Source: Saccostrea echinata (lineage: Eukaryota). Taken from it: a DNA stretch of 64,000 nucleotides. The stretch covers positions 15,438,001-15,502,000 of the forward strand of contig NW_026889796.1 of the NCBI RefSeq assembly GCF_033153115.1, written 5' to 3'. The notes beneath the pieces are model-generated. The model saw only the letters and a program-made list of their open reading frames with translations. It was not told where the DNA came from and did not search any database. The stretch's first letter is position 1. Every line of letters starts with the position of its first letter. Made by a program: the position numbers and the translations under genes. Positions 35,381 through 45,234 of this stretch are shown piece by piece.

Positions 35381-38300
35381 ATGAAGGCTGTCAGATATCT
35401 AAAAATCAGTTGTCTGCTTTGTATAATATGGATAGGATATGGAGGTATGTTCTTTTTTTCACCTGAGCAAGCATGCATCAAGGTATTCGTGATTTTATTC
35501 TCACCTCTGATTTCTGTGTCAGAAATTCTTTACTTTTTTAAAAAGAAAAATATATTAAATTCAATATAAATACAGCATTCAATTGTAATTGTTATATCTG
35601 AATGAGATACATATGTAAATATTGTATAAAAGATATACTTTTGCATCACAACATCACATTGACCTAAATTATACCAAATGCAATTGATTTTCTTTCTGGT
35701 TACTGAGGATCGTATTTCTTATTAAAGACCATGGATATTTCCGTCATTAAAGAGAACTGAGCATAAACAAAACGGATTCAAAACTGTTAATCGAACAGGC
35801 AGTTTTCTTTCTTTCATTGTTTATATGTATGTTGGTGAGAGGGAAGGGGAATCAACTCCTAGTTTACATAAAATGCATATTGTTTAAAATAAAATATGGA
35901 AAATTTGTCTCTTTTTACTTTAATTTTTACATATACACTGCTATAAATTCGGATATAAACAGATATACCATGCTATTAATCTACTTATAACACTGCTATG
36001 TTACAACGCACTTTGAACAATTATGCATTTTGAAAATATTTTTCAAAGTGCGTTGAATTTGGGACCATATTAACGCACTTTGAAAAAAAAATGTGCTCGG
36101 CTTGGTAAAAATTCTTACAAATTTTAGGCATGATAAATTATTAATTGAATATTGCAGCCCATGATAGTTTTGCTTTCTCTGCCTTTTTTATACCATTATA
36201 CTGAAACTGTCTTCCAGCCACTGCTGAGAATTGAAAACACCAATTTTAACATTTGTAATTTATTGAGAAATCACATCATACAATGTTGGATGGAAATGGC
36301 CGCAAATTTTGTAGGAGTCAAGGGAGACAACTAGGATACCATAAACAAACGGGCAAACTAATTGCCTCGCTTAGATGCGAGTGCCATGGAGCCCCATGCC
36401 CGACACACATGGTGGCTAGGCACAAAACCTGCACAGCTTTTACACCCTACCTCTGGCTTGCTACCTGGTTTAGAATTTTAACACCAAACGGCCTGTACCC
36501 TCTCCTAGTTTTATATAGGTAGAGGGGGTCTGAACACTGAAATACTGCAGATCCCAAGCAGTTTACAGTTATTCCACACATTTCCTCAGTGGCATTTAAC
36601 TTCTATGTTAACACACTGCCATGGACACCCCTCATGCTTTGATACAGATGGGCAGAGACAAAAAGTTCAGCATGTACAAGATGTCTCCCTTGACCCCGCC
36701 ACTAACATCAATATGATGTTCCCCACCAAAAATTTGCTCCAAAATCGATATACGTATCAATACTAAACTAATGACAGGTCATCGCAATTGAATCCTGAAT
36801 GATGAGGTTAAGGAAACTACTGAGGCGGGAAAACTTTGCCCTTACCCCCCAAAATGAATTCCAAACCACCTAGGATATTATTTAAATAAGCCTTATTCCC
36901 CCTTTCAGATCAATGGATTCCATCATATCTAAATAAACTGCTTTGATGAACATTGGTATTTTTGTCGTGAACAATGCAAGCCCCATTAACTTCGGATGTA
37001 ATTAATTTTCTAATGGCCTTGTTAACCTTACACCGTTTTAAATCAATCTTAGCCCCACACTTGCCTAGGCGCTCCATGCCAGTAAAGACGGGGAAGCATT
37101 GTTGACCAAATGAGCAAGGTCCTAGGAAGCCATACTTTATAAAGATATAGACTACATTGAATTTCATGTGAAAATCTTAGTGCATTATGGCCAGATGTTG
37201 TGAGATCATTTGACCCTGCATGAATAATCAATGTATCTGGGTATGGTTGATGCCTGAGTTCTTCTGTTAACACTTTGTCAAGATCTTCCCTTTTCAGCCC
37301 TCTTATTCCCTTCCAAGTGATGTGATTCCAAGATTAAGGTTCTTTCCGCCTGGTCTCCTCCCTGCCTCCACATCAGCCCGATAAGGTATTGAAGATCCTA
37401 CTATCCAAATTGTCTTGAAACCTGGAATACTTTTGGCAAATTTAGCTTGTGTTCCATTTAAAAATGCAATCACATTATAATCTGATGTAGTTTTGAATAG
37501 CTTTTGACTCCCACCTGCCCAAAGATTTAATTTCTGAATCTGGAAAGATCTGTAGCTCTACCTATTCTAAAGCTATGTGGTCTAAAGAGTCCCTAAATGT
37601 TATTGAATTGAAGTGCTTTCTGAAGCATGCAGTTGAATTGGTATCTTGTTACGCCTTTGTTATCGATATGAATGAAGAATAAAAAGGAGCCACTGTTAGG
37701 GCGCAGACGTAAAAACATGATTGCCCACAGTACTGGACAAACATCAGAATTTGGTTGTTTGCAACGTTGTTGTATTTCCAATTAGGCCAGTTTTGGACCT
37801 GGGAAATAGAATACTGATCCTGCTCTAAGTAAATGAGATGTGTGCCCTATGGATAGTCAAAACTTCACTTACCCTAAGCAAGCCGTGAAATGCAACTGAA
37901 AAAAACTGGAAAATAACACTGCCTCCTAGGGTGATCTACACACTGATGGCAATGCTGATACTACACGTTGCAAGATTGATAAAGTTTGAGATTCGAGAAT
38001 CTACAGTGATACCTCTCTTTTGTTTGCCCCCTCATTCTTAAATTCCCCACATGTTCGTGGGAAGTGGTGTTGGCCATGGATCTGCTGTAGGTGCTAGCCG
38101 TCGGAATCTGTCCCACTGTGAACGAGAAAAACAATCCGCAATAGAATTTGATTTAGATGATATGTATCTTGCTTTAATAAAAACAAGATGTGTTTGTGAA
38201 GCACTGATGCCCCCGCATGGCAACTTATAGCAAAGGTTAAACTTTCTCAAATGCAAATCAAATAGTTGGTACCCAAACTAAGGTCTTGTGTCGAGGAATA

Positions 38301-38659
38301 TACCTGTGAAATATGAAAGCCCTAGCAGCAACCATTGAATAGATATGGAAAAGGTTAAAGTTTCTTCCAAAGAAAGTCAAAAATCCAGGTCAAAGTCAAA
38401 TGGTCAAAATTAATGGTGCCTAAGGAAAGGCCTTCTCACAAGAAATATACTGGTGAAATATGAAAGCTGAAGCACCAATCGTTCTAAAGTTATGACCAAG
38501 GTTTAAGTTTTTCAAAAGAAGGTCAAACTCCAAGGTCAAGGTCAATGGATTACAATTGTTGGTATCCAAAGGAAGGTCTTGTCACAAGGATTATATATGT
38601 GAAGTATGAAAGCCCTAGCACCAACGGTTCAAAAGATATGGCCAAGGTTAAAGTTTTCC

Positions 38660-44600: not shown

Positions 44601-45234
44601 AAAGATACATGTATTTTGTAATTTTATATAAGAGAAAAAAAAAACTACAATAAAAGCAGCACATAAACATACCTAAGGATTCGTAATACTTTATTTATAT
44701 CACACAGAAGAAAAGAGAATTATAAAGTTCATAACGTATAAAGAATATCAACTGGAATGGACATAAAAAAAATCAAAGCACCCTTAAATTTATACAGCAT
44801 TGGTATTTATGTCGGGATCGCTGCAGCCACCGTGGTGTTGGTCGTATTGATCGTCTCAATCTCATGTTGCTGCATCCATAAATACAACAAAAAGAATGTC
44901 ATCGTCGGAGTCAGTCCAGATTCGCACAATCAAATGTTTGGTTAGTACATGTATGCAAAGAATTTTGCGAATTGAAACGTTTACCTAACATAAATATTTT
45001 ATGTAGATTAATCTAAATATTTCTTGTAGAATACATAATTCATATTAAGATAGAAAACGGAAAAAAATCTTTGTGAGCTGATTTTTTTTATTTCCAGCAG
45101 CTCAAAGGACACAATATCAGTGGCCAACGGCTCCTCCTCTGTATGAGCAGGCCATTTCTACAAGAAATCAAGCACCTGCTGCCAATGTTAGCTATTCCAG
45201 AACTAGTGGTGTTTTGTTTGACAGTAAGAACTAA
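35381..45234 (+). CDS. WAP-domain + CYYR1/Shisa-like single-pass membrane protein, paralog B (218 aa)
   Basis: Exons 35381-35444 (signal peptide MKAVRYLKISCLLCIIWIGYG), 41289-41453 (WAP: KKPGTCPAISPSMTGSCTNYYCTSDYDCVGEEKCCSDDCATYSCQKP, 8 Cys), 41727-41874 (KGAECPQVSYRTDSFGFKWPMTSYIYCSTGCCGVRNNHFCC), 44798-44940 (TM + CCCIHKYNKKNV), 45098-45234 (TAPPLYE..VSYSRTSGVLFDSKN*). Intron phases 1, 1, 2, 1; open frame of 657 nt. Confidence 0.85.
36850..40790 (-). mobile_element. Decayed tyrosine-recombinase retrotransposon (Ngaro/DIRS class): RT, RNase H, YR, SGNH hydrolase; gag missing
   Basis: Minus-strand fragments in order: RT (KEVSLGRVAG..PPFPTLQVSPLGL; YYDKMLPFGC; ILHHLDDFLF; FLGIEFDT), RNase H (DLKVWLAFLQSFNG; NSIADCFSRSQW), YR (AFHGLLRVSEV; CPV; PHSFRIG; LGRWESKAIQNYIR), SGNH hydrolase (IWIVGSSIPY; IHAGSNDL; DGIH). 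Many stops and frameshifts. Confidence 0.92.
38183..39327. mobile_element. Complete HINE-type element with ~7 x ~146 bp caaggtcaaggtca array, inserted into the RNase H region of the YR retrotransposon
   Basis: Starts acaagatgtgtttgtgaagcactgatgccccc; ends acagacagacgg..cccccgaatcttcaatacggggggataaaaa. Inserted in an A/T run; removing it restores CLKYNF-FIKARYISS on the minus strand. Confidence 0.9.
41977..44490. mobile_element. Outer TIR MITE hosting a nested DNA transposon (paralog B intron 3)
   Basis: tatggtagcatatttttgccccc ... gggggcagaaatatgccactata. Confidence 0.65.
42102..44371 (+). mobile_element. Non-autonomous GGG-ended TIR DNA transposon (~2.3 kb, Sola2/Zator-like) with dispersed tgttgcactcctgac motifs
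   Basis: TIRs gggtgaattaaaaaaaaatgacca / tggtctttttttttattcaccc; ttgcactcctg motif about 7 times; no transposase ORF; a second copy at 54296-55854. Confidence 0.75.

Follow-up and report, generated by a model that had tools for sequence, protein, structure and literature searches.

An acidic WAP domain exon in an oyster gene of the Shisa-like/CYYR1 (STMC6) adaptor type

WAP domains are commonly shuffled, promiscuous modules, and PY motifs with WW domains form a textbook binding pair. The papers cited here by PMC number are cited from excerpts. STMC6 proteins are described as single-pass adaptors of trafficking and degradation sharing a C*C*CC*CC domain (PMC5578492, PMC10531659), and one of them, CYYR1, binds WWP1/WWP2 through PPxY at late endosomes and drives lysosomal degradation (PMC11399591). 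We analysed a stretch of 64,000 nucleotides of the oyster Saccostrea echinata (contig NW_026889796.1, positions 15,438,001 to 15,502,000, hereafter the window) carrying three tandem genes of this type, paralogs A, B and C. Paralog B, on the plus strand at 35381..45234, encodes in addition a WAP domain. It is a real, spliced gene, conserved in at least three oyster species and already predicted in databases, and it is uncharacterised.

Paralog B consists of five exons with AG/GT ends and intron phases of 1, 1, 2 and 1, giving an open frame of 218 aa preceded by a stop in frame 21 nt 5' of the ATG. The translation is identical to the RefSeq protein XP_061194498.1 (P0010), annotated as "uncharacterized LOC133202658 isoform X1" of S. 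echinata. Exon 1 (35381..35444) carries the ATG and a likely signal peptide (21 aa, from composition) and ends with a phase-1 donor, whereas exon 2 (41289..41453, 165 nt) is symmetric (phase 1-1) and encodes a single WAP domain. The six-Cys domain lies in exon 3 (41727..41874), from Cys85 at 41750 to Cys121 at 41860. Exon 4 (44798..44940) encodes the transmembrane helix (about aa 127-148), a juxtamembrane CCC and the basic stretch KYNKKNV, and exon 5 (45098..45234) the cytoplasmic tail with PPLY at 45133-45144 and the stop. Paralog B thus equals paralog A plus one symmetric exon, as the initial annotation had proposed, the two proteins being about 45% identical outside the WAP. The signal-like exon 1 directly precedes the six-Cys domain in A, in C and in a Magallana gigas (M. 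gigas) gene model described below; in B the WAP intervenes.

Splicing was examined on assembled contigs from four public runs of two studies, aligned to 35200-45700; that these runs are RNA is a guess, none being recorded as such, but their contigs do skip introns at GT..AG. Exon 1 was joined to the WAP exon (35444-41289) in two of the four runs (X1 and X5), the WAP exon to the six-Cys exon (41453-41727) and 41874 to 44798 in all four, and 44940 to 45098 in three. All five exons were found on a single contig in X1 (869 nt) and on another in X5 (718 nt). Both junctions predicted for the WAP exon were therefore recovered, and the case in which it is never spliced to 41727 is ruled out. The WAP exon was also included in all seven distinct RefSeq accessions listed (S. 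echinata, S. cucullata and Crassostrea virginica). The additional suggestion that it could be skipped fared less clearly: no joint from exon 1 to 41727 was present among the 15 of 74 joints listed, contigs being assemblies that drop rare variants, whereas one M. gigas gene model lacks the WAP. A minor WAP-skipping isoform of paralog B may exist. P0004 and P0005 were considered as such isoforms and rejected, their C. virginica-like six-Cys exons being entered from upstream sequence with no signal peptide; they are probably products of intron read-through.

The acceptor of the six-Cys exon (41705-41726) is weak, purine-rich, nearly without pyrimidine tract and ends in AAG, and was used in all four runs. 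Exon 5 starts at a tandem CAGCAG acceptor (45098-45100), of which the contigs examined take the upstream site; this tandem explains the 218- and 217-aa RefSeq isoforms of both Saccostrea species. Intron 1 contains a repeat element (38180-39330) that was extremely abundant among the transcript contigs.

The WAP exon matched Pfam PF00095 with 39.6 bits (cut-off 20.8, E 6.2e-10), in agreement with the textbook eight-Cys domain recognised beforehand. Its cysteines extend from Cys1 at 41318 to Cys8 at 41434 with a spacing of 10-4-5-5-CC-3-4. The eight-Cys pattern occurred once in the window and in none of 100 shuffles, no second WAP exon or trace of one was found elsewhere in the 64 kb, and all eight positions were invariant in the 19 aligned rows. 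A structure model of the exon (predicted local distance difference test, pLDDT, 67; predicted template modelling score, pTM, 0.50) retrieved WAP-protein chains as the top 10 of 22 rows from the PDB, with elafin and SLPI among the matches, at template modelling scores of 0.56-0.68 and with all Foldseek E-values above 0.001. The full-length AlphaFold2 model of paralog B, computed from a 3-row alignment, was uninformative (pLDDT 34). 

In the three WAP-bearing species the C1-C2/C2-C3 spacing was 10/4, 10/3 and 10/3 (6/8 in elafin), and Cys2 was followed by TNYY, NYF and TYE, with no Met. The net charge of the core was -5 in paralog B, and -5, -6 and -8 across the three species (isoelectric point 4.3-4.6), whereas 19 other WAP cores of the same genome ranged from -3 to +2. 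The eight cysteines and the unusually acidic core were thus retained in three of three species while the surface residues varied. Such a pattern is compatible with drift, with an arms race or with a cap that binds loosely through its charge.

The remainder of paralog B corresponds to an STMC6 scaffold with a conserved PPxY, in line with the Shisa-like/CYYR1 adaptor proposed by the initial annotation: the signal-like 21 aa and the WAP are followed by the C*C*CC*CC domain, one hydrophobic helix, CCC with KYNKKNV, and the PPLY tail. The six cysteines (C85, C107, C111-112 and C120-121) were invariant in 30 of 30 aligned rows, seven of which matched Shisa_N, six WBP-1 and four CYYR1 at E <= 0.01. 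The helix appeared as a single strong peak (Kyte-Doolittle 2.8 over 19 residues), with the CCC behind it. PPLY, at residue 186, was found in all eight proteins checked, and is present in four oyster species (S. echinata, S. cucullata, C. virginica and both M. gigas copies). The C-termini of Saccostrea A and B (31384-31523 and 45098-45234) share a terminal V-x-Y-x-R-x-S-G-x-x-F motif, which is degraded in C. virginica B.

Orthologs of paralog B with the WAP were recovered in S. cucullata (85% identical) and C. virginica (51%), and orthologs of paralog A in S. cucullata and Ostrea edulis. A WAP-free profile searched against 1.84 billion representatives gave 37 matches at E <= 0.001; their WAP content was checked by Pfam scan for 34 and by precomputed domains for three, and a WAP was present in one of the 37, paralog B's own isoform. 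The M. gigas protein P0017 (UniRef K1PPQ8) is a B ortholog, with 55% identity over 121 aa, in which the signal exon is joined straight to the six-Cys domain, without WAP; it is known from one M. gigas model, an old one. This model fuses two 98%-identical copies of the WAP-less B, which may correspond to a recent tandem duplication or to a haplotype artefact of the assembly. Word-based homolog searches missed P0017, and such searches cannot show the absence of a WAP-bearing M. gigas form, or of the architecture elsewhere. A metagenome scan with P0017 gave 72 pattern matches, none of them a relative, and no cluster with WAP plus Shisa/CYYR1 was listed among the Atlas clusters of at least 50 members, all scores being below 0.9; the best feature match, a mollusc "CYYR1" cluster at 0.84, is a lead only. 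In the searches made here, the pairing of a WAP with a Shisa/CYYR1-like scaffold thus appears to be found only in oysters.

Phylogenetic analysis was performed on the part of the proteins outside the WAP and the signal peptide, with 25 rows including 17 of the 29 other distant matches. P0020 (PKD repeats) and P0022 (no six-Cys domain) were unrelated among the 37 matches and were excluded; a mixed WAP and six-Cys alignment that placed six-Cys domains under WAP, and a misaligned fragment alignment, were discarded. Paralogs A and B formed a clade of oyster sequences (100/100) on a long branch. Within it, M. gigas B paired with C. virginica B (92/64), and the WAP-bearers were never recovered as one group (0% of 200 bootstrap trees). 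With M. gigas B in this position, a single gain of the WAP followed by a loss, a skip or an annotation miss in M. gigas is the simplest scenario.

An exon-shuffled origin of the WAP, put forward by the initial annotation, is probable on the basis of the tree and of the class 1-1 phases, with a single gain in oysters. The A/B ancestor would have been duplicated in tandem, after which a class 1-1 WAP exon would have entered intron 1 of copy B; judging from tree and exon phases, this entry would predate the Saccostrea/Crassostrea split, and M. gigas would later have lost the exon or would skip it. The genome contains at least 45 WAP matches; among 30 loci fetched, 25 fit the eight-Cys pattern. 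In 12 of the 24 loci other than B, heuristic splice scoring found a single domain closely flanked by a candidate phase-1 acceptor and a candidate phase-1 donor; six of these 12 repeat one another almost exactly, and ten are located on the contig of the window, at a distance of 1.1-1.4 Mb. Donors of class 1-1 were thus at hand. Exon shuffling usually draws on class 1-1 modules located next to signal peptides (PMC8001218), the excerpt of that paper leaving WAP unmentioned. No specific donor could be named among the 20 WAPs compared, the C. virginica WAP being about equally close to several of them. Separately, the contig of the window carries at 16.60-16.88 Mb a WAP cluster of at least 12 matches, with six near-identical exons mostly about 3.3 kb apart, which is a multi-WAP gene or an array of exons that are likely phase 1-1.

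By analogy with the described family, the reading that we favour, with a probability of about one half, is that paralog B is a Shisa-like/CYYR1 (STMC6) adaptor of NEDD4-family ligases to which an acidic lumenal binding cap has been added. The single-pass protein would have a type I topology, its PPLY would likely recruit a NEDD4-family ubiquitin ligase via WW domains, and the ligase, the adaptor or a client would be down-regulated in a ubiquitin-dependent manner, all three steps being modelled on the family. The acidic WAP cap would likely help to select the partner protein for endosome/lysosome sorting. The weakest step is the mode of action of the WAP: as proposed for anosmin-1 and UMODL1, it would interact with a client ectodomain or a ligand through its charge, and would not be an inhibitor of the elafin type. 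In those proteins, acidic WAP residues were docked against basic FGFR1/FGF2 surfaces, in silico only (PMC8874799). A bolder version, which we find distinctly doubtful, would have the fast-evolving acidic WAP turn the STMC6 adaptor into a ligand-selecting receptor that commits a basic extracellular target to NEDD4-dependent lysosomal removal, the target being perhaps a host growth factor or receptor, or perhaps a pathogen protein. If so, A, B and the WAP-less B would be a natural series of adaptors gaining clients.

Several observations weigh against the adaptor with a binding cap. The match of paralog B to Shisa_N (PF13908) stays below threshold (12.5 bits, cut-off 22, E 0.16), and P0010 has no CYYR1 (PF10873) match at E <= 0.05. 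Paralog B has a single PY motif, whereas CYYR1 lost binding only on pairwise deletions (PMC11399591, excerpt). The cap itself is poorly conserved: between Saccostrea and C. virginica, identity at non-Cys positions is 15 of 45 for the WAP exon and 32 of 43 for the six-Cys exon (Fisher p 1.3e-4). When the C. virginica WAP was compared with 20 WAPs of the genome, its score with the paralog B WAP was 115 and its scores with two others were 117 and 113; at this background level there is no clear sign of a conserved, specific client, and the sequences would also allow two independent insertions. The WAP-less P0017 model is a further point of the same kind.

A rival possibility is that the WAP exon has been tolerated as a largely neutral passenger, paralog B working like A and the cap folding without a specific partner. 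The divergence of the WAP to background level among WAPs, the WAP-less M. gigas model with its two near-identical copies, and the symmetry of the exon, which leaves the frame intact, are what one would expect of such a passenger. We nevertheless place it on the unlikely side of possible, in view of the eight cysteines and acidic core kept in all three WAP-bearing species and of the presence of the exon in assembled transcripts of both studies and in every RefSeq accession listed. Fast divergence would equally resemble a host-pathogen interface, and the modelled exon adopts a genuine WAP fold that matches, among others, elafin and SLPI in the PDB. Both points would suit the scavenger receptor imagined by the initial annotation, in which the WAP captures extracellular proteases or microbes for ubiquitin-dependent endocytosis. 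A WAP need not have the elafin spacing to be an inhibitor, the example being a reported cross-class protease inhibitor that we take to be WFDC2. The source that reports this inhibitor ties antiprotease activity to the 6/8 spacing and describes antimicrobial WFDCs as cationic (+12, +3), in contrast to cores of -5 to -8 here (PMC11408880, excerpt). A Met beside the scissile bond near Cys2, given elsewhere as a criterion for inhibitors (PMC9680087, excerpt), is also missing, and capture of proteases or microbes by paralog B is thus quite unlikely.

Perlwapin and lustrin are WAP proteins of mollusc shells, and on the mantle surface an acidic WAP could conceivably bind mineral matrix or calcium, or it could be shed into the shell matrix. 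The acidity of the core and the enrichment of WAP proteins in mussel mantle rim and foot (PMC5549309) agree with such a role, but in the same mussel study, as excerpted, Shisa-like proteins were enriched in gill, and paralog B has one WAP and no low-complexity tract of the shell type. We regard this role as highly improbable, and retain the NEDD4-family adaptor with an acidic cap as the working interpretation of paralog B.

Paralogs A, B and C are flanked by a WD40 gene on one side and by a CUB-domain gene on the other. Paralog A (25035..31523, plus strand; exons 25035-25086, 26672-26849, 30279-30436 and 31384-31523) encodes 175 aa, equal to P0014, on the same scaffold without WAP and with intron phases of 1, 2 and 1; its intron 2 contains a tandem array (29760-30210, unit of about 40 nt). 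Paralog C (49626..50954, plus strand; exons 49626-49674, 49867-49987, 50500-50624 and about 50770-50954) is CYYR1-like, more distant than A, with three PPxY and no WAP, and the related P0049 groups with M. gigas "protein shisa-4"/"CYYR1". The flanks of the window, 40 kb on the upstream side and 60 kb on the downstream side, yielded no additional A/B-like gene. The genome contains at least 23 STMC6-like exon matches, and only the three of the window lie within 1 Mb of any WAP match listed. The multi-exon WD40 gene (window about 13500-21155, plus strand; one exon with PF00400 at E 1e-11) presumably resembles DAW1/WDR69, and on the other side CUB-domain exons (about 57660-58490, plus strand; PF00431 E 1.2e-5) are followed by a Thr-rich exon. 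An exon rich in Pro, Gln and Tyr (6557-6712, plus strand) contains PPQY and PPSQYGQ repeats, has no Pfam match and is probably the tail of another PY-type protein.

How small lumenal domains of STMC6 adaptors choose clients is poorly known, and this oyster locus lends itself to a natural comparison: A has no WAP, B has one, and M. gigas may have a B without it. Should the cap alter degradation targets, exon shuffling would here have cleanly re-targeted a ubiquitin adaptor; should it change nothing, the gene would be an unremarkable case of a promiscuous module shuffled within one lineage. We found no literature on these loci or on WAP combined with PPxY, a transmembrane segment and NEDD4, a mention in the STMC6 survey of Pei and Grishin (2012) being possible. 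The searches made here found no description of the combination of domains. The initial claim of an undescribed system goes too far, the gene being a single oyster-restricted paralog of a known adaptor family and already predicted in RefSeq.

Compared with described proteins, the WAP of paralog B shares with elafin (WFDC14) and SLPI (WFDC4) the eight-Cys four-disulfide core, the KPGxCP start and KCC. Those proteins are cationic and secreted, as are the antimicrobial crustins, and have a loop containing a Met and a spacing of 6/8, whereas the B WAP is tethered to the membrane and acidic, lacks a Met after Cys2 and has a spacing of 10/3-4. UMODL1/olfactorin and anosmin-1 likewise carry a WAP inside a mosaic extracellular protein, and UMODL1 has a transmembrane segment as well (PMC8874799), so that the pairing of WAP and transmembrane segment is not new in itself. 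They differ in being large FN3/EGF/SEA/ZP proteins without a six-Cys STMC6 domain, and no PY tail is described for them in the excerpt of that paper. PRRG4 and Commissureless resemble paralog B in joining a small extracellular module, a transmembrane segment and a PY tail, GLPSYEQAV of PRRG4 recalling PPLYEQAI of B (PMC5578492); with a Gla domain or none in place of WAP and six-Cys, they are a likeness and not a demonstrated homology. The STMC6 proteins (CYYR1 PF10873, WBP1/WBP1L, VOPP1, TMEM92 and SHISAL2) share with paralog B the C*C*CC*CC domain, one transmembrane segment accompanied by a Cys cluster, the PY motif and a signal peptide, which is likely in B; paralog B differs from them by its extra N-terminal WAP, by one PY motif instead of three and by its sub-cut-off Pfam scores.

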